Under the pieces are notes generated by a model that saw only the letters and a program-made list of their open reading frames with translations, was not told the origin of the DNA and ran no database searches. From Halomicrobium mukohataei DSM 12286 (GTDB lineage: Archaea > Halobacteriota > Halobacteria > Halobacteriales > Haloarculaceae): a DNA stretch of 32,000 bases. The DNA is taken from positions 840,001 through 872,000 of the forward strand of contig NC_013202.1 of the NCBI RefSeq assembly GCF_000023965.1, in the 5' to 3' direction. Of the stretch, positions 1,963-30,493 are shown piece by piece. A program made the translations under genes and the position numbers. Position 1 is the first letter of the stretch. Each line of letters opens with the position of its first letter.

Positions 1963-3059
1963 AATAACTCGATCACAGACGTCCTCAATGACGTCCATAT
2001 CGTGACTCGAAAGCAGTACCGTCATGTCCTGCTGGTCGATCGTGTTTCGGAGTTCTTTCTTGAGTTGCCTGGTGCTTTCAACGTCCAGACCGAGTGTTGG
2101 TTCGTCGATACAGACGATCGATGCGTCGGTGACGAGGACGCTGGCCAGCGAAACTTTCTGTTTCATTCCGCGCGAGAGATTCCGGACCACCTCGTCGCGC
2201 TTCTCATCGATTTCAAACCGCTGGAGAATCTCGTCACACTCTTCGAGAACGGCATCTGGATCCAGACCGCTAATTCCGGCAAAATAACGCAGATTTTCCT
2301 CGACGGTCAGTCGCCAATAGTTGTTCCTCGCCCCCTCGAGCATCGCATCGATCTGTCGGTGGGCGAGTCGAGGACGGTCGTGAACGTCGACGCCACCGAC
2401 CTCGACAGATCCCGAATCCGGAATCACCAGCCCGAGTATGGATTTGATCGTCGTCGTCTTCCCCGCCCCGTTCGGACCGAGCAGCCCCACCACCGAGCCG
2501 GGTTCGACGGTGAACGACAGGTCGTCCACCGCGGTCACCGCACCGTCGTCGAAACGCTTTGTGAGACCGTCGACCACGAGGTCTGGTGCGTCATTTGACA
2601 TTTCTCTGTGATTTATCCGATGTATCTCCGGTATTTATTATCTTCGTTATCACCAAGTGACGACGACCCAGTCTGTCGAGCGGGAGATCGTTCGAGACGG
2701 ATCCGATGACAGCCGATTTATAACTCTGTGAAACGGAGTGCGAGCGGAACGGACCGATCACGATAGTTCCGGGTACCGACACGACCGAGAACGTCGCAAG
2801 CAAGATCGGAGACACGACATTCCGATGGAATGGAGACAGCAATGCGTACGAGTCCTGTCTCGAACAGGGCGTTGTGATCGGACGGGACACAGAGGATGGG
2901 TATCGACGGGTCCACTTGCTCCGTCTTCTGGACTGTCGGCTGGACCCACCACGAGTGGAAAACTTATACTCGTACATCACAAATCACCCACGAACTGATG
3001 GGAACGCCAGTCCGTGATTTCAACGGCGACACCCGATAGCGCGACTATTCTACAGAACA

Positions 3060-3260
3060 ATGAAAGACATCGAAGAGAGCGTCTCGGGCTTCAAGCGTCG
3101 TGGCGGCTGGGTGAACGTCGTCGAGCACGGCGAACGGATCGTCCAGGCGCTGCGCGAGCTGGACGACGAGGACGGCGTTGAGCAGATCGACCGCCCGGAC
3201 CTGCTGGGCGGCGACGAGGCACGGGGCCGGCTCGTCCTGCGCTGGGAGGGCGAGCGATGA
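3060..3260 (+). CDS. Small acidic protein (66 aa), a short paralog of the N-terminus of the 239-aa protein at 10063-10782
   Basis: MKDIEESVSGFKRRGGWVNVVEHGERIVQALREL matches the other protein at 33 of the first 34 residues. The DNA differs at 11 synonymous sites and 1 non-synonymous site in codons 1-34. Weaker similarity continues to about residue 58. Confidence 0.6.
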   Translation: MKDIEESVSGFKRRGGWVNVVEHGERIVQALRELDDEDGVEQIDRPDLLGGDEARGRLVLRWEGER

Positions 3261-3264
3261 AACC

Positions 3265-3306
3265 CCGGGAGCGAACGGTGTGCCGCCGGGAGCGAACGGT
3301 ACGCCA
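3265..3306 (+). repeat. Two tandem copies of a 21-bp unit (CCGGGAGCGAACGGT core) upstream of the ferredoxin gene
   Basis: The 15-mer CCGGGAGCGAACGGT occurs at 3265-3279 and again at 3286-3300. The full 21-bp units match at 18 of 21 positions. They lie between the stop of the 66-aa ORF (3260) and the ATG at 3322. Confidence 0.8.
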
Positions 3307-3321
3307 CCGGAAGGACGAGGG

Positions 3322-3639
3322 ATGACGACGGCGACCATCACCGTCGAGACGCCCGACGGCGCGGTCCGAGAGATCGACTGCGAGGCCGGGCGCGTGCTGC
3401 GGGACGTGCTGGTGGAACACGACCTGTCGCCCCACAGCCGCCTGGCCGTCGCCAACTGCGGCGGGCGCGGACTGTGTGCGACCTGTGGCGTTCGACTCGA
3501 AACGCCTCCCGAGGCCGACCACTGGCACGATCGGCTGGCCGACCGTTTCGGCTACCCGCGACTGTCCTGCCAGATCGAGGTCGTCGACGGAATGGCGGTC
3601 CGGATTCCCGAGAAGCGCGTCTGGGGCCGGCGAGAGTGA
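3322..3639 (+). CDS. 2Fe-2S ferredoxin-like protein (105 aa)
   Basis: MTTATITVETPDGAVREIDCEAGRVLRDVL...NCGGRGLCATCGV...RLSCQIEV has the cysteine pattern and fold signature of plant-type 2Fe-2S ferredoxins. I chose the internal ATG at 3322 because the upstream extension of ORF 3178-3639 is Arg/Gly-rich and overlaps the preceding ORF. Confidence 0.8.
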   Translation: MTTATITVETPDGAVREIDCEAGRVLRDVLVEHDLSPHSRLAVANCGGRGLCATCGVRLETPPEADHWHDRLADRFGYPRLSCQIEVVDGMAVRIPEKRVWGRRE

Positions 3640-5543: not shown

Positions 5544-5621
5544 TACTGCCGGCTGTAACTTCGTGAAGATCTTCGCCACCCCGGGGTGGCGAAATTGTTC
5601 ACAGATTTATAGCCGGTAGTA
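5544..5621. mobile_element. MITE-like palindromic element, copy 1 (78 bp), flanked by TTA/TTA
   Basis: TACTGCCGGCTGTAAC...central hairpin CGCCACCCCGGGGTGGCG...TTATAGCCGGTAGTA. The termini are inverted repeats of each other. The 3-bp direct repeats TTA lie at 5541-5543 and 5622-5624. It is intergenic, between the small lipoprotein gene and the stop of the TRAP permease gene. Confidence 0.6.
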
Positions 5622-5634
5622 TTACCGGGCCCGG

Positions 5635-8322
5635 CTACGCGGCGTCGGCGGTCGCTCCGGAATCGCCGCGGGGGGCCGCCCGCCGGTTCTTCGCCAGCAG
5701 CGCGACCAGCATCGCGAGCCCGACGGCCCGGAGCAGCAGGTCGGCGGTCAGAGAGACCGAGCCGCCGCCGAGCCCCAGCAGCGCCGTCACGTCGTAGCCG
5801 GCCGACACCGGGAGCCCGGGAGCCATCAACAGGAGCGAGCTGACCGCCAGCCCGGCCCGTTCCCAGCGGTCGAGGGGCGCGTAGACGAAGCCGATCACGG
5901 TGCCGGCCAGCGCGACGACGCCGAGGAAGACGCCGACGACGGGGACGAACACCTCCGGGAGCGACCAGCCCAGATCCAGCAGATCGGCCGGGGTGGCGAC
6001 GCGAAACTGCTCGCCCAGGGGTAGCTCCGCCGCGTCGTCCTTCTCCCGGAGCAAGACGATGCCGGGGACCAGCACGAACGCGAAGGGGACGATCGCCTTG
6101 TTGAGCGACAGCGAGAACGCCTCGATGCCCGTCTGGAAGGGGTCCGACTTCGCGATGCCCGAGGCCGCGTAGGCGGCGACGGCCACCGGCGGCGTGATGT
6201 CGGCGATGACGCCGAAATAGAGGATGAACAGGTGCGCGGCGAGTTCGGGGATACCGAAGGTCACGAGCGCGGGCCCCAGCATCGACACGAGGATGATGTA
6301 GGTGACCGTCGTCGGCATCCCCATCCCGAGGATGATCGACGCGATGGCGGTGATGACCAGCAGGAGGACCAGCGAGCCCCCGGCCAGCGAGCGGATGAGC
6401 GCGACTAGGTTCGGCCCCAGCCCGGAGACGCTGATCACGCCGGGGATGATTCCCGCAGCCGCGACCGCGACGACGACCGGGACCGCGGTCCGGGCACCGC
6501 TGTCCATCGACTTGAGCACGAAGGTACCGAGCCGAACGAGCCCGTTGTCGCCCGCCGCCGGGCGACCGACGGCCGTCGAGAGCCCGTCGGCGGCCTCGTC
6601 GACCGCGGGATCGAGCGCGAGCCACGACGCGGTCAGGCGCGGCTTCGAGAGCAGTGTCAGGACGCCCGCCGCGATCGCCAGTCGGCCCACGGTGCCAAGC
6701 GTCGCCGCGGCGGCCCCACCGATCGATAGCCCGCCCGGACCGCCGCCGCTCAGTGCGGCGACGAGGGGCGCGCCGGTCGACCACTGTGCGAGGAACTGCC
6801 CCAGGCCGAGCGCCAGGAGGAGGGCGACGAGTCGCCCCCGCGTTTCGTCGCTGTAGGCCGCGACGAGCGTGATCAGCGCGACGATGGCCACGAGCGTGAA
6901 CCACGCCGAGCGCGCGACCGAGAGCCGAGCGCCGATGAGGTAGTACAGCAGGAGGAAGATGGGGACGAGGTAGAACCAGCCCGTCCAGAGGTGTCGCCGG
7001 ATGTCGACGACCGAGTCGGGATCGAGCCCCCCGATACCCAGCCGCGAGGCCTCGAAGTGGACCATCACCCAGACGCCGAAAAAGAAGACGACGGCCGGGA
7101 TCGCGGCGGCGACGATCACGTCGGCGAAGGGCGTCGCGGTGTACTGGACGATCAGGAAGGCCGCGGCACCCATCACCGGCGGGAGGATCTGACCGCCCGA
7201 GGAGGCCGAAGACTCCACGCCACCGGCGAACTCCGGGGAGTAGCCCGACCGTTTCATCAGCGGGATCGTGAACGCGCCGGTCGTGACCGTGTTCGCGATC
7301 GAGGAGCCGGAGATCGTCCCCATGAAACCACTCGCGAGGATCGACGCCTTCGCTGGCCCGCCCTTGCGCGTGCCCGTCGCCGCGTACGCGAGATCGATGA
7401 ACCACTGGCCCGCCCCGGACATCTCCAGGAACGCGCCAAAGAGGATGAAGATGTAGATGAACTGCACCGACACCGTCACCGGAATACCGAAGACGCCGTT
7501 CTCCGTGTTGTACCAGAGGTTCTGGACGATCGAGGGCCAGGTCAGCTCCGGGATCGAGAGGACGCCGACGTAGGCCGCGTCCTGTGGGATCAACACGCCG
7601 AAGCGGGCGTAGACGATGAACGCACCCACGATGAAGACGAGATAGAGACTGATCGCTCGCCGCGTCGCCTCCAGGACGAGCAAGACGCCGACGACGCCCA
7701 GGACGAACGCGTAGGACACGTTCGTCAGCGGGCCGAGCAGGCCGGCAACCGGGTCGAGGAACGTGAACACCTCCTGGATCGGCCGACCGGCGGGCAGCCC
7801 CAGCGCGCGCATGCGCTGGATCTCTCGGAAGTCGGTGACGAAGTACGCGCTCGACAGCACCGTGACTGCGATCAGGAGGAGATCCGACGGCGTCACGCGG
7901 TCGAGGTCGGGATCGACGAACAGCCAGGCCAGTCCGTCACCGATCGCGTCCATCGCCGAGACGAGCGGGCTGTCGGGGCCGAGCCGAGCGGCCGTCCGCG
8001 CTCGGAGTCCGCTGCAGGCCCGCGCGAATCGCCCGTCGCCCGTGCTCCCGGGGTACAGCAGGAACGTCAGCACGAGCGCGAAACCGACGTGAATGGCGTT
8101 GATCTGCAACAGCTGCAGGGAGGCGAGTTCGACCTCGCCGAGGACGGGCAACTCGACGGCGAAGACGAACCCGCGGGCGGCGAACCACATCTGGTAGGCC
8201 GAAAAGAGGATGCCGACGATCGAGACGACGACGCTGGCCACCCGCCGCAGCGAGCGTTTGCGTTCGATCTCCTGGAGCAAGTCGTCGGCCGCGACATCGG
8301 TATCGGTGATGCGAGGAGTCAT
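5635..8322 (-). CDS. TRAP transporter fused permease (TAXI-type, DctQ/DctM-like fusion)
   Basis: An 895-aa polytopic membrane protein with motifs typical of the fused TRAP-T permease (...GGPAKASILASGFMGTISGSSIANTVTTGAFTIPLMKRSGY...). Its ATG overlaps the stop of the DUF1850 gene (ATGA). Confidence 0.9.
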   Translation of the reverse strand: MTPRITDTDVAADDLLQEIERKRSLRRVASVVVSIVGILFSAYQMWFAARGFVFAVELPVLGEVELASLQLLQINAIHVGFALVLTFLLYPGSTGDGRFARACSGLRARTAARLGPDSPLVSAMDAIGDGLAWLFVDPDLDRVTPSDLLLIAVTVLSSAYFVTDFREIQRMRALGLPAGRPIQEVFTFLDPVAGLLGPLTNVSYAFVLGVVGVLLVLEATRRAISLYLVFIVGAFIVYARFGVLIPQDAAYVGVLSIPELTWPSIVQNLWYNTENGVFGIPVTVSVQFIYIFILFGAFLEMSGAGQWFIDLAYAATGTRKGGPAKASILASGFMGTISGSSIANTVTTGAFTIPLMKRSGYSPEFAGGVESSASSGGQILPPVMGAAAFLIVQYTATPFADVIVAAAIPAVVFFFGVWVMVHFEASRLGIGGLDPDSVVDIRRHLWTGWFYLVPIFLLLYYLIGARLSVARSAWFTLVAIVALITLVAAYSDETRGRLVALLLALGLGQFLAQWSTGAPLVAALSGGGPGGLSIGGAAAATLGTVGRLAIAAGVLTLLSKPRLTASWLALDPAVDEAADGLSTAVGRPAAGDNGLVRLGTFVLKSMDSGARTAVPVVVAVAAAGIIPGVISVSGLGPNLVALIRSLAGGSLVLLLVITAIASIILGMGMPTTVTYIILVSMLGPALVTFGIPELAAHLFILYFGVIADITPPVAVAAYAASGIAKSDPFQTGIEAFSLSLNKAIVPFAFVLVPGIVLLREKDDAAELPLGEQFRVATPADLLDLGWSLPEVFVPVVGVFLGVVALAGTVIGFVYAPLDRWERAGLAVSSLLLMAPGLPVSAGYDVTALLGLGGGSVSLTADLLLRAVGLAMLVALLAKNRRAAPRGDSGATADAA

Positions 8323-10062: not shown

Positions 10063-10782
10063 ATGGAAGACATAGAAGAGAGCGTCTCAGGCTTCAAGCG
10101 CCGCGGTGGTTGGGTCAACGTCGTCGAACACGGCGAACGGATCGTACAGGCGCTGCGAGAGTTGGCGACCGACGAACGCGTCGACCAGCCAGTCGACGGC
10201 GACGCCCTCGAAGAGTTCGACGAGTGGCGACCGAAGAGCCACGAGCGACTCGACGAGGACGTCAACGAAAAGACCGCCGAACAGGCCCGCGTCGACGAGG
10301 GCAAAGGCGAACAGGCGGGGAAAGACCCCGACGACGACCTCCGGACGGCCGGCGAGAAACTCGCAGACTCCTACGAGAACCTCGACGAGCCCGACGAGGC
10401 CGTCGAGTCGTGGGGCGAGAGCTTAGACTACGTCGCCCGCGCCGCCGACTCGGCCAGCCGCAAGGCCCTGCGGACGGTCGAAGACACCGTCTACAAGAAC
10501 GTGATGACCCAGATCGCACCGTACTACTTCGACAACGCGCTCGTGAGCGCGAACCTCCAGCGGGTCAACGGCGACGACCGCCCCGAGTACGTCTTCGAGA
10601 TCAACGTCAACGACGACGACCTCAAGGAACGAGTCTCCAACCGCCTGGCGGACTTCGACAGCGACGTCGACCGGTGGCACGTCAACACCGAGAAGGAAGT
10701 CGAGGCCGCCGCCACGGCGGAGGGCGTAGAGGTGAGCGAGGAAGAGACGGGCGACGAGGAGACGGATGCGAAGACGAACTAA
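10063..10782 (+). CDS. Acidic hypothetical protein (239 aa) sharing its N-terminal module with ORF 3060-3260
   Basis: A long ORF with haloarchaeal-type acidic composition. Its N-terminus MEDIEESVSGFKRRGGWVNVVEHGERIVQALREL is duplicated elsewhere in the window. I did not recognise a family. Confidence 0.7.
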   Translation: MEDIEESVSGFKRRGGWVNVVEHGERIVQALRELATDERVDQPVDGDALEEFDEWRPKSHERLDEDVNEKTAEQARVDEGKGEQAGKDPDDDLRTAGEKLADSYENLDEPDEAVESWGESLDYVARAADSASRKALRTVEDTVYKNVMTQIAPYYFDNALVSANLQRVNGDDRPEYVFEINVNDDDLKERVSNRLADFDSDVDRWHVNTEKEVEAAATAEGVEVSEEETGDEETDAKTN

Positions 10783-10824
10783 ACGCTGCTCTGTCAGCGT
10801 TTAATTTCGGGTTCGTATCCGGGA

Positions 10825-10877
10825 GACGCCAAAACGAAATTTCGCTCGGCTTCCCTCGCTCAGTTCGTTTTGGCGTC
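10825..10877 (+). terminator. Perfect 14-bp inverted repeat (GACGCCAAAACGAA / TTCGTTTTGGCGTC) with a 25-nt loop, 43 nt after the stop of the 239-aa gene
   Basis: The arms are at 10825-10838 and 10864-10877, read directly from the sequence. Its function (terminator, RNA element or protein-binding site) is not established. Confidence 0.35.
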
Positions 10878-11330
10878 GGAGAGGTGAGAGACGAACCGAC
10901 GCCGTGAGAAACGAGACCAAGTAGCGGAGAATTTCCGGAGAGAGAGAGCGACTGCGGACCCAGATTACGACCACTATTTCTGGAAGAATCGCGGTACCGG
11001 ATCGCACACCCCAGAATTACTCACGGAGTCGTTTCTCTATAATGAAAACACGAGGGTCTTGAGTGTCTTCTGTAAGTCGTTTTGTATCAGTAGATGAATT
11101 TCGTTAATTCGAAGCCGGGCACTTCGGTAACAGTTCCGTACTTCCCGAACGACTGTGTAAAATTATGAAGGACTTATGTGGGATTCTCACAACGTCTCCG
11201 ACGGAGGTTCGGCCCTTCCCGGTTCGCGGCGGCGACCGTCGGGCTGTCGAGCGCCCGGGGTCGTCCGACACACCACTGGCATGGGACGCGTGGGGTTGGG
11301 GCCAAACGACTGCCTCCGAGAGTGACAACC

Positions 11331-29422: not shown

Positions 29423-29870
29423 CGACGGTGACGGTCACCGGGGCCTCGCGGACGACCGCCGTCGCGACCGTCCCGAGCAGGCGCTTCGCGAGATCGCTGC
29501 CGCCGCCGTGACCGCCCATCACGATCTGGTCCGCGTCGTTGGCCTCGGCGTAGGCGACGATCGTCTCGGCGGGGTCACCCTCCTCGACGACCGTCTCGAC
29601 GGGGTCACCCTCCTCGACGACCGTCTCGACGGGCTGGTCGGTACCGGCGGCCTGCTCTCTGGCGGCGTCTATCACGTCCGCCGCGTGCTCGCGAGCCGCG
29701 CCTCCCCGCACCTCGTCGGTCAGCACGCCGCTCTCGCTCATCGCGGCGTCGATCGGCGTCACGACGTTCAACACCGTGATCGGACAGTCGAAAACGTCCA
29801 GCGCGTGGGACAGCGCCGCCTGCGAGAGCGGCGAGCCGTCGAGGGGGACGAGGACGTGTGAGGGTCGCAT
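29415..29870 (-). CDS. Universal stress protein (UspA family) carrying a 10-aa internal tandem duplication
   Basis: MRPSHVLVPLDGSPLSQAAL...VETVVEEGDPVETVVEEGDPAETIVAYAEANDADQIVMGGHG...LGTVATAVVREAPVTVTVV. The start is ATG 29870. The gene has an 8-nt convergent overlap with PiT paralog 2. Confidence 0.85.
   Translation of the reverse strand: MRPSHVLVPLDGSPLSQAALSHALDVFDCPITVLNVVTPIDAAMSESGVLTDEVRGGAAREHAADVIDAAREQAAGTDQPVETVVEEGDPVETVVEEGDPAETIVAYAEANDADQIVMGGHGGGSDLAKRLLGTVATAVVREAPVTVTVVR
29571..29630. repeat. Perfect 30-bp tandem duplication inside the usp gene
   Basis: GGGGTCACCCTCCTCGACGACCGTCTCGAC occurs at 29571-29600 and identically at 29601-29630. It is in frame and adds VETVVEEGDP. 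Confidence 0.95.
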
Positions 29871-29965
29871 ACCGGAACCGTCGTCAGCCGGGATCAAAGA
29901 GGTGGGTGCTCGTGTCAAGTGCTATGGGTCGGCGAGTGTGCTCGCCGGGAAATTCGTCGCAAAAA

Positions 29966-30334
29966 TAGTCCATCCTGGATATCGAACCGGAGCAAGACGG
30001 TCGCTCACTACGTTCGCGCTGCGACTTGCAGGGCTCGAATCCACTCCGTCGACGATTCCGCGGCTCGCGAGTTTGCGAGCCGCAGGAATAGTCCATCCTG
30101 GATATCGAACCGGAGCAAGACGGTCGCTCACTACGTTCGCGCTGCGACTTGCAGGGCTCGAATCCACTCCGTCGACGATTCCGCGGCTCGCGAGTTTGCG
30201 AGCCGCAGGAATAGTCCATCCTGGATATCGAACCGGAGCAAGACGGTCGCTCACTACGTTCGCGCTGCGACTTACAGGGCTCGAATCCACTCCGTCGACG
30301 ATTCCGCGGCTCGCGAGTGTGCTCGCCGCAGGAA
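29966..30334 (-). repeat. Three tandem 123-bp units contiguous with tRNA-Gln, each ending (in the tRNA sense) with a copy of the tRNA 3' half
   Basis: The units are 29966-30088, 30089-30211 and 30212-30334. The first two are identical, and the third differs at 4 positions. TAGTCCATCCTGGAT recurs at 29966, 30089, 30212 and 30335, the last being the real tRNA. Confidence 0.95.
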
Positions 30335-30407
30335 TAGTCCATCCTGGATTCGAACCAGGGTCGAAGCCCCCAGAAGGCTTCAGGATTGGCCACTACCCCA
30401 ATGGACT
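30335..30407 (-). tRNA. tRNA-Gln (anticodon CUG)
   Basis: A manual cloverleaf fits. The acceptor stem is AGTCCAT/ATGGACT. U8 and A14 are present, with a GG in the D-loop. The anticodon stem is AAGCC/GGCTT with loop TTCTGGG (C34 U35 G36). The T-arm is CCTGG-TTCGAAT-CCAGG and the discriminator is A. No CCA is encoded. Confidence 0.9.
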
Positions 30408-30493
30408 GTGTACCCCATCGTATCCGGCAGTCGCATATCAGTGTTACGGACGAGACGGTTCCGTGTGACCGTCTGCCATCCGATCGCCGGGGG

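Follow-up and report, generated by a model that had tools for sequence, protein, structure and literature searches.

Three tandem units carrying direct and inverted copies of a tRNA end follow tRNA-Gln(CUG) in Halomicrobium mukohataei

Analyzing a stretch of 32,000 nucleotides from Halomicrobium mukohataei DSM 12286 (the window), we found a single tRNA gene, a minus-strand tRNA-Gln(CUG) called by ARAGORN and scored by Rfam model RF00005 at 49.5 bits (E = 2.7e-9; gathering score 29), with both the cloverleaf seen by detectors and the anticodon expected of a canonical tRNA. Its sequence is 100% identical at all Halomicrobium loci and at the metagenome loci L018, L029, L033, and L034. At these four loci the tRNA is also preceded by the block CCGTAACACTGATATGCGAC, which we infer, from known haloarchaeal promoter geometry, to be the putative tRNA promoter; a promoter and terminator scan of the bacterial type, which is unsuited to archaea, gave no match here. 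The next gene on the same strand, encoding a universal stress protein (Usp), has its own box, CTCTTTGAT, at 29893-29901, about 28 nt before the ATG and conserved in relatives. Gene and box are context and lie outside the array described below (Table 1).

Directly after the tRNA come three units, U1 to U3, where Tandem Repeats Finder reports a repeat at 29964-30356 with period 123, 3.2 copies, 98% matches, and a score of 751. All units share the end CTTGCTCCGGTTCGATATCCAGGATGGACTA; a 23-mer from the unit end occurs three times in the window and not once in 100 shuffles, which excludes chance. U2 and U3 show no differences in direct comparison, and U1 departs from them at three hairpin positions (11, 12, and 16 of the unit) and at position 61 (window coordinates 30324, 30323, 30319, and 30274, in that order). 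Each unit consists of a short trailer hairpin, H1, and a long hairpin of ~86 nt, LH2. The H1 of U1 is imperfect and of a type common to the related LC1Hm and IBSBa, and that of U2 has a perfect 9-bp stem, GCGGCUCGC/GCGAGCCGC; the three clustered substitutions that make the latter a perfect palindrome look like templated repair.

The last unit is followed by a T5 run (A5 on the plus strand at 29961-29965) and a tail hairpin. A T run with a CGACGAC motif also stands directly after the tRNA in L018 and after a unit in L013 and L033. The tail hairpin is related to a GGCGAGCACCGCGTGTGCTCGCC hairpin that is perfectly conserved in L013, L018, and L029, and the array stops within the tail hairpin, where it also stops in H. 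katesii. On these sequence relations we read TTTTTGCGACGAA as the start of the ancestral tRNA trailer and the tail hairpin as the remnant of the ancestral trailer hairpin, an identity that an earlier note on this DNA, made from the letters and their reading frames, had missed. What that note described is confirmed, with one refinement given below: ARAGORN and RF00005 agree on the canonical minus-strand tRNA, Tandem Repeats Finder and direct comparison on the three in-phase 123-bp units, and direct comparison on the identical distal units and the proximal unit with four differences, three of them in the hairpin; the T5 run after the last copy only and the tail hairpin are both present, and the resemblance it saw between that hairpin and the proximal unit's is reflected in the relation to H1. 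Coding potential across the repeat was rejected, since the open reading frames begin inside the tRNA or shift frame with unit length (114-125 nt) and are thus spurious.

Table 1. Features of the tRNA-Gln(CUG) locus and its array, in window coordinates
Feature	Coordinates	Strand	Basis	Remarks
tRNA-Gln(CUG) gene, 73 nt, no encoded CCA	30335..30407	-	ARAGORN; Rfam RF00005; identity across loci	
Conserved upstream block CCGTAACACTGATATGCGAC	30430..30449	-	sequence	TATA-like GATAT ~30 nt before tRNA 5' end
Unit U1, 123 bp	30212..30334	-	sequence; covariance model R1, 101.8 bits	H1 30302-30334, LH2 30214-30299
Unit U2, 123 bp	30089..30211	-	sequence; R1, 103.8 bits	H1 30179-30211, LH2 30091-30176
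Unit U3, 123 bp	29966..30088	-	sequence; R1, 103.8 bits	H1 30056-30088, LH2 29968-30053
X arm of U2, UGGAUUCGAGCC	30155..30166	-	folds, pair counts	U1 30278-30289, U3 30032-30043
Stem 2 (GCAAG/CUUGC) and variable apex, U2	30115..30152	-	compensatory changes	U1 30238-30275, U3 29992-30029
3'* arm of U2, GGUUCGAUAUCCA	30099..30111	-	folds, pair counts	U1 30222-30234, U3 29976-29988
T5 run and CGACGA motif, TTTTTGCGACGAA	29953..29965	-	sequence	present here only after last unit
Tail hairpin CGGCGAGCACACTCGCCG, CGGCGAG-CACA-CUCGCCG	29930..29947	-	sequence	related to H1
Universal stress protein (Usp) gene, 151 aa	29415..29870	-	gene call; Pfam PF00582 in L001	next same-strand gene

The exact identity at the tRNA/unit junction covers 25 nt, ATCCAGGATGGACTA plus 10 nt of trailer, and the last 15 nt of the tRNA, including the discriminator A, end every unit exactly. 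Before this identity stands GGTTCGA with a 1-nt insertion (GAAT to GATAT), and in L018 and L027 the match is exact from GGTTCGA through GGAC, about 20 nt. Upstream of the T-stem only weak similarity remains, which confines the copied block to the segment between T-loop and 3' end: the tRNA 3' copy in each unit is real, but its extent is not positions ~40-73 as first described. The units in this way carry a direct repeat of the 3' part of the tRNA gene, as att repeats do for their target tRNA. In addition, an inverted copy lies upstream in every unit, which the earlier note did not see. This X arm repeats the tRNA T-loop region in inverted orientation and forms the 5' strand of a 12-bp helix in LH2, whose 3' strand is the 3'* arm, a direct copy of the same region with one extra U bulged; LH2 therefore pairs an inverted with a direct copy of the T-loop-to-3'-end segment. 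In L018, the 5' arm reads AGTCCA..GGATTCGAACC, which apart from a 2-nt deletion is the tRNA end in reverse complement; the module there folds at z = -5.4. The X and 3'* arms (AGTCCA/TGGACT in L018) also have the form of terminal inverted repeats.

The LH2 fold is conserved among relatives. In a MAFFT alignment (A1), 97.9% of cells are paired and three pairs have changed on both sides, with a covariation score reached by none of 500 shuffles and slid controls pairing only 25-46%. A model-fitted alignment (A3) has 96.8% of cells paired and five pairs changed on both sides, and RNAalifold reproduces this fold and adds a 2-bp stem at the apex, in GC, AU, and GU variants. One covarying position shows four pair types, and a bulge and asymmetric internal loops are conserved while the stems covary. 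The structure is conserved via compensatory substitutions, as in structured RNAs, over the 12 distinct sequences of this one model-fitted alignment, some of them paralogous. Some of the "compensatory" differences are paralogous types swapped by recombination, so that independent events are fewer than the cell counts. Together, folds and alignments show a two-hairpin structure in which H1 derives from the ancestral trailer hairpin and LH2 is a rod with inverted and direct tRNA-end arms. Wobble cells number 11 for G.U or U.G against 4 for C.A and none for A.C, a weak bias to the tRNA-sense strand. The overall divergence of LH2 is close to that of four-fold degenerate sites; apex and stem 2 outpace synonymous sites between close relatives, and only the arms and the pairing look constrained. 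Complementary changes could also arise by DNA-level templated repair of quasi-palindromes, without RNA selection.

Searched at permissive thresholds with the window, L018, L027, and L029, Rfam 15 returned only sub-threshold chance matches (E ~1.4 or worse). A T-arm hairpin was rejected as the conserved fold for poor pairing and lack of covariation, and inspection disposed of a split, permuted, or intron-containing tRNA (no D arm), an H/ACA guide (no ACA box or pocket), and a C/D guide (no C or D box).

The module is not specific to H. mukohataei. It follows tRNA-Gln(CUG) directly at 12 of the 12 related loci recovered, which include H. katesii, LC1Hm, IBSBa, and the metagenome loci L017, L018, L027, L029, L033, and L034, and none of the relatives examined has lost it, even where the protein of the neighboring gene is only 77% identical. 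On sequence evidence, the 3' flank of tRNA-Gln(CUG) consists of this module both in Halomicrobium and in the uncultured lineages closest to it. Halomicrobium urmianum (L022) and a 72%-identity relative (L030-L032) lack a tRNA-Gln beside the profilin-fold gene, and the synteny trail therefore stops there. A match on a Salinibaculum plasmid turned out to be a tRNA-Gln within a 9-tRNA cluster, without the module. Scanning a genome collection with the 19-mer GGAGTGGATTCGAGCCCTG gave one chance bacterial match and did not return the source species, whose genome apparently lies outside that collection; relatives differ by 1-2 nt in this word.

Copy number varies among the related loci (1, about 1.7, 2 dispersed, or 3), and L013 and L014 have different unit types beside an identical flanking protein. 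The surrounding DNA varies as well: L033 has a low-GC insert of ~700 bp between the X arm and a degenerate 3'*, L029 has ~300 bp between two units, and in L013 a peptidase S9 gene follows a truncated second module, all without mobility genes or clean att boundaries. For the abhydrolase gene of L018 and L034, an ancestral origin is possible.

In-phase, head-to-tail, near-identical copies whose number varies between relatives are the pattern of tandem expansion. The finished chromosome record CP045142.1 (L001) agrees with the window over 11.5 kb with 0 mismatches, all three copies included, and is perhaps not an independent assembly. Five short-read assemblies break off exactly 46 nt past the tRNA, at the point where sequence specific to U1 gives way to sequence that it has in common with U2 and U3, and two more (L004 and L007) collapse to a single unit joined directly to the T5 tail. 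Breaks and collapses of this kind are expected of a real repeat with at least two unit variants. The collapsed assemblies could be taken to mean that a single unit is genuine and its triplication an error of assembly; however, the four differences between U1 and U2/U3 mean that at least two unit variants exist, the five assemblies break as at a repeat branch, the finished record agrees, and four other Halomicrobium assemblies have tandem or partial second units. An artefact is thus extremely improbable.

At 11 of the 12 loci, the stretch from the tRNA through the first LH2 contains no run of four or more T, the exception being L018 with a T4 between tRNA and module, and this makes read-through plausible. 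A T4-T6 run follows LH2 at a distance of 2 nt here and in L033 and of 18 nt in L034; several Halomicrobium loci have no T run at all after the module, so a trailer terminated after LH2 is not universal. Co-transcription of the tRNA and LH2, with the latter as a structured 3' trailer, is plausible on this pattern. In the predicted minimum-energy fold of the tRNA plus U1 (-85.0 kcal/mol), X sits on the real T arm, compared with -69.7 when the cloverleaf is enforced, and without the 3'* copy the corresponding values are -60.7 and -41.8; these energies leave aside tRNA modifications, tertiary contacts, and co-transcriptional folding.

The explanation we favor, although we place it a little short of probable, is that an older hairpin module, derived from the end of tRNA-Gln and serving as a structured trailer with a built-in decoy, was recently triplicated in place in H. 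mukohataei to give the array. The T-loop-to-3'-end segment of tRNA genes is the crossover site of tRNA-targeting tyrosine integrases, and its TTCGAA core is palindromic here. This segment would have been duplicated in both orientations or, alternatively, copied by fold-back at the trailer hairpin. Unequal recombination or slippage between the 25-31-nt repeats would then gain, lose, and swap units; unit comparisons show expansion as such events would produce it, which would account for the identity of U2 and U3 in this genome.

As for function, the lack of an oligo-T terminator between tRNA and module makes it probable that the pre-tRNA carries the module as a structured 3' trailer, which tRNase Z would probably remove by cutting at the genuine 3' end of the tRNA. 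In sequence, the X arm is antisense to the T arm of the tRNA that it follows, and selection may hold X locked in pairing with the neighboring 3'*, with stem 2 nucleating the helix. Such selection would explain the compensatory changes, and it would make the 3'* copies decoy pairing partners within the rod, not tRNA-like processing sites. A counterpoint is that plain deletion of X would be an easier evolutionary fix.

Other readings share part of this evidence. The units had been proposed to be att-like footprints of integrase recombination, later amplified. Amplification by unequal crossing-over is well supported by the identity of U2 and U3, the varying copy number, and the different unit types of L013 and L014; an att origin is plausible in form only, with a T-loop-to-3'-end block and variable adjoining DNA but no integrase and no donor found. 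Taken further, the array would be a neutral relic, old integration scars of lost elements with no RNA or other function, whose hairpin complementarity is a by-product of DNA palindrome origin or repair (fold-back copying or template-switch correction). Partial duplication of tRNA genes by integrating elements is common in archaea (PMC9897764), and an archaeal integrase able to invert DNA between att sites (PMC5495485) offers a route to inverted copies. The extent of the copied block, the variable inserts beside modules in L013, L029, and L033, the clustered substitutions that give a perfect-palindrome H1, and the near-synonymous rate of LH2 overall also agree with a relic. However, Pfam annotation of 4-10 kb on each side at ~12 loci found housekeeping genes only and no integrase or mobile-element gene. 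Nor was there a real match to an attP-like donor in IMG/VR (exact patterns of the unit interior, the 3'* copy, the true tRNA end as 22-mer and 18-mer, and the conserved trailer hairpin) or in the INPHARED phages and PLSDB plasmids (BLASTN with the Halomicrobium and L018 modules); an 18-mer virus match is due to chance, in a coding region of a 30%-GC virus. Moreover, the module is retained in all relatives examined, down to 77% identity of the neighbor protein, 97% of cells pair compared to 25-48% in slid controls, and bulge and asymmetric loops persist where palindrome correction would erase them. The unit predates the genus, compensatory changes have preserved its hairpin, and it is no scar in decay; we consider a wholly neutral origin somewhat unlikely. 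Known att repeats of tyrosine-integrase elements, which may also accrete in tandem at one tRNA, are similarly direct repeats of the segment from T-loop to discriminator downstream of an intact tRNA, have variable DNA beside them in relatives, and recombine. In contrast, the repeats described here are only 92 bp apart with no integrase, cargo, or donor found, each direct copy pairs with an inverted one in a hairpin kept by compensatory changes, and the module is conserved across the genus and beyond instead of being strain specific. We consider it very unlikely that LH2 is a miniature non-autonomous mobile element of the MITE or small mobile repeat type that inserts specifically at the tRNA-Gln 3' end. 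It does have the right form (80-95 nt, imperfect ~20-nt inverted terminal repeats, and a hairpin-forming body), comparable 80-110-bp haloarchaeal repeats exist with inverted ends, no target duplication, strong target preference, and unexplained mobilization (PMC3119063), unit types are out of step with the flanking protein, and the insert between X arm and degenerate 3'* in L033 resembles cargo. Yet model R1 found no dispersed copies in ~220 kb of related sequence, only those beside tRNA-Gln(CUG), and all real metagenome matches with upstream sequence adjoin this tRNA (L028 ends at a contig end). LH2 is flanked by no target-site duplication, no transposase lies nearby, and the right "terminal repeat" is merely the tRNA end. 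The MITEs, PATEs, and SMRs of Haloquadratum (PMC3119063) are likewise non-coding, 80-120 bp long, and bounded by inverted ends or palindromic, with strong site preference and, in the SMRs, no target duplication; they differ in being multi-copy and dispersed, whereas the module is seen at one tRNA locus with tRNA sequence itself as one end. Bacterial REP/BIME clusters, with short imperfect palindromes in alternating orientation, short linkers, intergenic position, and alternative fold registers, are also similar, but they belong to another domain of life, are spread genome-wide, and are mobilized by RAYT, and neither dispersal nor such a gene is seen here.

The earlier note's second proposal, in which the 3'* copies serve tRNase Z or RNase P as processing signals of the t-element type and ~120-nt hairpin RNAs are released from a ~450-nt read-through transcript, also appears improbable to a high degree. 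Consistent with it, no terminator separates tRNA and units, the T5 run follows the last unit, and the exact last 15 nt of the tRNA with the discriminator A recur at each unit end. In L018 and unit 2 of L029, the rod is closed by a 6-bp acceptor-like stem, with a double change from A-U to C-G between the two. The premise that the units are tRNA-like, however, fails: across the window, L018, L027, and L029, neither ARAGORN nor RF00005 (to E = 10) found a tRNA-like fold in any unit. A C.A mismatch sits at the center of the T-stem copy, whose loop in Halomicrobium measures 8 nt, the T-arm copy is sequestered in the 12-bp helix of the conserved fold, and the 5' acceptor-like strand has decayed to 3 bp in Halomicrobium. 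The t-elements of Haloferax are treated in the literature; in work by Holzle and colleagues from 2012, a tRNA-like element upstream of the 5S rRNA is reportedly a proven tRNase Z signal, and other predicted Haloferax elements chosen for testing are said not to have been cleaved in vitro. Like t-elements of plant mitochondria and of the Haloferax 5S rRNA, the units place tRNA-derived sequence, with the exact 3' end and discriminator, by a real tRNA in a probable polycistronic transcript. Unlike them, they are silent to tRNA detectors and lack a cloverleaf or acceptor/T-arm minihelix, and the predicted fold, which covariation supports, hides their T-arm copy inside a long rod. A further view, which we consider unlikely, is that H1 and LH2 constitute an undescribed structured RNA family from the pre-tRNA-Gln trailer, either switching X between the tRNA and 3'* or persisting as a stable sRNA. 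X-tRNA pairing would then block folding and processing of the tRNA, with 3'* as the built-in decoy. If true, the module would act in cis to control or quality-check the maturation of tRNA-Gln(CUG), or would be a source of a stable trailer-derived small RNA, and H. mukohataei would have three doses of trailer RNA. The 3'ETS-leuZ of E. coli is an sRNA sponge from a tRNA 3' external transcribed spacer. The module would resemble such functional spacers as a structured RNA released from a pre-tRNA 3' trailer, but differs in that its sole obvious complementarity is to the tRNA itself.

Fragments of tRNA genes beside tRNA genes are usually dismissed as integration scars. At this locus, direct and inverted fragments became a hairpin module that is kept beside an invariant tRNA and is still expanding and contracting. 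If transcribed, it would be a natural pre-tRNA trailer with an antisense to its own tRNA plus a decoy for that antisense, and would bear on the folding and processing of archaeal tRNA precursors. If not transcribed, it would indicate that long palindromic scars can persist and mimic RNA covariation, a caution for ncRNA screens. On a practical level, the repeat at this locus breaks short-read assemblies.

The three units beside tRNA-Gln(CUG) are, in our assessment, duplications of the tRNA end that have become a conserved hairpin module. ARAGORN finds this tRNA gene to be the only one in the window, and the Rfam tRNA model recovers it at 49.5 bits. By direct comparison, three 123-nt units (U1, U2 and U3, counted from the tRNA) follow in phase with its 3' end, and with Tandem Repeats Finder the period comes out at 123 bp (3.2 copies, 98% matches). 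U2 and U3 do not differ, U1 departs at four positions, three of them within the first hairpin, and all three units share an identical 31-nt ending; a 23-mer of this unit end occurs three times in the window versus 0 in 100 shuffles. The earlier note had described the tRNA gene, the phased units with these differences, the terminal T5 and the hairpin beyond it in just this way. It had also taken each unit end for a copy of tRNA positions ~40-73, which holds for the block from T loop to 3' end, ATCCAGGATGGACTA, to which exact identity is limited and which is preceded by GGTTCGA plus one inserted T, but the likeness is weak upstream of the T stem.

Positions of features in the window and in related or metagenomic sequences
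Sequence	Feature	Position	Strand
Window	tRNA-Gln(CUG)	30335-30407	minus
Window	U1	30212-30334	minus
Window	U2	30089-30211	minus
Window	U3	29966-30088	minus
Window	123-bp tandem repeat, span	29964-30356	
Window	A5 (T5 in tRNA sense)	29961-29965	
Window	Extra hairpin	29930-29947	
Window	GATAT of TATA-like box upstream of tRNA	30435-30439	
Window	Copy in 3' arm of long hairpin (example)	30099-30111	
Window	Purine-rich loop motif (example)	30115-30152	
Window	30-bp tandem repeat in Usp gene	29555-29633	minus
L018	Purine-rich loop motif (example)	5551-5562	
L033	Low-GC insert	~2900-3600	
L011 (H. katesii, KB905378.1)	Usp and PHO4 remnants	~7086-7700	
L028	Partial unit, hairpin, second element	first ~150 nt of contig	reverse
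L030	Intergenic region after profilin-fold gene	10747-11247	
L035 (NZ_CP129994.1)	tRNA gene cluster	132981-135924	

The profilin-fold protein that flanks the array is identical to H. mukohataei entries, and the finished chromosome record CP045142.1 carries the same three units, with 0 mismatches across 11.5 kb. Five short-read assemblies with the same flanking gene end exactly 46 nt past the tRNA, where U1-specific sequence runs into sequence common to U2 and U3, and two further ones collapse to one unit. An assembly artefact is an unlikely source of the three copies, because a real repeat that exists in two or more variants breaks and collapses in this way in short-read assemblies.

Each unit consists of a short trailer hairpin, H1, and a long hairpin, LH2, which folds as a rod of ~86 nt. 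H1 has a stem of 5-9 bp, and among lineages its sequence is of three or more unrelated types; that of Halomicrobium is related to the trailer hairpin GGCGAGCACCGCGTGTGCTCGCC, which is perfectly conserved in the related loci L013, L018 and L029. In LH2, a 12-bp helix joins the 5' arm, X (UGGAUUCGAGCC), to the copied T-loop region GGUUCGA-U-AUCCA of the 3' arm, 3'*, with one bulged U in Halomicrobium; inward of it lie a small asymmetric internal loop, a 5-6-bp stem 2 and a variable apex that often bears GAGCGAAGCGAG. The L018 5' arm, AGTCCAAC-GGATTCGAACC, is the reverse complement of the last 21 tRNA nt with a 2-nt deletion, and its rod is closed by a 6-bp acceptor-like stem (z = -5.4), which has decayed to 3 bp in Halomicrobium. 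Thus, LH2 is made of two copies of the tRNA end, one inverted and one direct, and the array presents tRNA-end copies in alternating orientation with hairpins between them. The array tail, T5-GCGACGAA followed by CGGCGAGCACACUCGCCG, matches the trailer found directly 3' of the tRNA in L018 and after the unit in L013 and L033, and is therefore the ancestral tRNA trailer, whose 13-nt T-run segment has been lost from the internal unit junctions.

Orthologous loci were fetched via the flanking protein, and metagenomes were scanned with a degenerate pattern. The 12 loci so recovered all have an identical or near-identical tRNA-Gln(CUG), and the module lies directly 3' of the tRNA in every one. L027 and L034 have one unit each, H. 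katesii has one and the start of a second, and the LC1Hm group (L010, L014, L016, L017) has one and ~0.7 of a second. In the IBSBa draft (L013), one unit is followed by the ancestral trailer and then by another, truncated module; in L033, by a second module split by ~700 bp of low-GC DNA; L029 has two units with ~300 bp between them. The most complete form is that of L018, whose neighboring protein is 79% identical. Since all 12 loci share the module, it is older than the genus, and its array in H. mukohataei is an expansion specific to that lineage. L013 and L014 have different unit types beside an identical flanking protein, so some of the variation comes from paralogous units being exchanged or differentially lost rather than from in-place point substitution.

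Pairing within LH2 is conserved. In a MAFFT alignment of 10 distinct units with 19 proposed pairs, 97.9% of cells are paired and three pairs are changed on both sides; none of 500 shuffles scored as high in covariation as the alignment itself, and pairing falls to 25-46% when the partners are slid by 1-3 columns. A second alignment, extended by L033 and L034 to 12 distinct sequences, gives 96.8% and five such pairs, including a C-G to U-A change within the 12-bp helix, in a covariation sample that is small and, for this alignment, fitted to the model. Stem 2 occurs as GCAAG/CUUGC, GUCAG/CUGAU, GCCAG/CUGGC, AGCAG/CUGCU and GCAGAC/GUCUGC, and as GAAGAC/GUCUUC in the partial copy of L028. Independently, RNAalifold arrives at this structure too and adds a 2-bp stem at the apex (GC, AU and GU variants). 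The stems vary while the bulge and asymmetric loops stay conserved; as a caveat, overall divergence of LH2 is about that of four-fold degenerate sites. Wobble cells (11 G.U/U.G versus 4 C.A) favor the tRNA-sense strand, which hints weakly at constraint on the RNA. Folding the copy like a T arm gives poor pairing and no covariation, and this fold was rejected as the conserved structure.

While the structure, age, pairing conservation and copy-number dynamics of the module are established, several readings of it compete. The earlier note had suggested a co-transcript with tRNA-like processing signals; ARAGORN makes no call in the units, RF00005 does not match them at E up to 10, nor does any Rfam family, and the conserved fold is not tRNA-like, which weakens that proposal. 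Its other suggestion, amplified att-like footprints, is borne out as to copy-number dynamics, but for integration it is plausible only in form: no integrase or mobility gene lies within 4-10 kb at any locus examined, and no donor sequence was found in IMG/VR, INPHARED or PLSDB. A tRNA-specific miniature mobile element is likewise weakened, as no dispersal was seen; across ~220 kb of related sequence, every copy that an LH2 covariance model detects adjoins tRNA-Gln(CUG), and LH2 has no target-site duplication. A serious alternative is a purely neutral scar whose complementarity comes from the formation and correction of palindromes in the DNA itself: the three clustered changes that make H1 of U2 a perfect palindrome appear templated, whereas the conserved asymmetries of the hairpin argue against it.

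In form, the module is like integration-derived tRNA-gene fragments, t-elements, haloarchaeal small repeats (MITE, PATE, SMR; PMC3119063), REP/BIME clusters and functional tRNA 3' spacers, but it departs, on a defining test in each case, from att repeats with an element, from t-elements and from mobile repeats. Neither Rfam nor the literature searched yielded a description of this architecture. An 18-mer match in an AT-rich virus was dismissed as chance, and ORFs across the repeat as spurious.

In 11 of the 12 loci no T run of four or more interrupts the stretch from the tRNA to the end of the first LH2, and a T4-T6 run follows LH2 at 2 nt in the window and L033 and at 18 nt in L034. The conserved module would then be transcribed as the 3' trailer of pre-tRNA-Gln, which tRNase Z would remove at the real tRNA end. 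X is antisense to the T arm of the same tRNA, and unprocessed tRNA plus U1 folded in silico favors X with the real T arm (-85.0 kcal/mol versus -69.7 with the cloverleaf enforced), a preference that is larger without the 3'* copy (-60.7 versus -41.8). The covariation is explained most economically, we infer, if selection holds X in its pairing with the neighboring 3'* decoy and stem 2 nucleates that hairpin. If transcripts or a part in tRNA-Gln maturation were shown, the module would gain in interest.

As to origin, the copied block is the segment that reportedly serves tRNA-targeting tyrosine integrases as crossover site (Williams 2002). In archaea, integration commonly leaves partial tRNA duplications (PMC9897764), and an archaeal integrase is able to flip the DNA lying between att sites (PMC5495485). 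Given such inversion and the palindromic TTCGAA core of the copied block, integrase action is a plausible source of tRNA-end copies in both orientations; alternatively, they could stem from fold-back copying at the trailer hairpin. Inserts without mobility genes lie beside modules in L013, L029 and L033, and would fit a recombination-prone site. The H. mukohataei triplication probably arose by unequal recombination or slippage between 25-31-nt repeats.

Several further features were seen at these loci. In the 3'* copies, one extra T converts the T-loop copy TTCGAAT to TTCGATAT, whose GATAT equals that of the TATA-like box upstream of the tRNA; it might act inside the array as a weak promoter for the unit that follows, or be coincidental. 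In several loci, loops of the LH2 apex and of H1 contain a recurrent purine-rich motif, GAGCGAAGCGAG or GUGAGCGAC, which can form a GCGAAGC mini-hairpin with tandem G.A pairs at its flanks; H1 of L027, L029 and L034 is similar to the H. mukohataei LH2 apex, and GAAGCGAG-like strings occur in a long intergenic region of L030. Salinibaculum sp. KK48 has, on a 560-kb plasmid (L035) and without an LH2-like module, nine tRNA genes within 3 kb (Gln-CUG, Asp, Gln-UUG, two Glu, two Val, Asp and Ala), none listed in the PLSDB gene table.

The tRNA-Gln locus turns over faster than its flanks in L013 versus L014, which share the profilin-fold protein P0122: downstream of the tRNA in L013, a type-A unit is followed by the hairpin of the ancestral trailer, by a second module that is truncated and by a peptidase S9 gene of 2 kb, and L014 has a type-B unit and a partial second unit without the peptidase gene. 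The ~700-bp insert of L033 (31-55% GC versus a background of 62-70%) encodes a 173-aa ORF with no Pfam match and lies inside the second module, between the X arm followed by TAGTCCAT and a degenerate tRNA-end copy, GGTATCCAGTAGTGAC. At the L028 contig end, a partial unit is followed by an H1-like hairpin and a second element with the same loop motif, GAGTGAAGCGAG, and a different tRNA-like ending, GGCTCGAATCCTCCCCAGCATTA, then T4; this element may be a diverged copy or derive from another tRNA, and the gene context downstream differs too. Less than 400 bp from the tRNA array, the universal stress protein (Usp) gene contains a second recent tandem duplication (2.6 copies, 95% matches), which doubles the 10-residue stretch PVETVVEEGD, the protein having 151 aa in the window versus 142 aa in LC1Hm- and IBSBa-type relatives. 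In H. katesii, Usp is cut to 78 aa and the adjoining PHO4 phosphate-transporter gene is mostly gone, and a deletion appears to have fused their remnants just 3' of the tRNA module.
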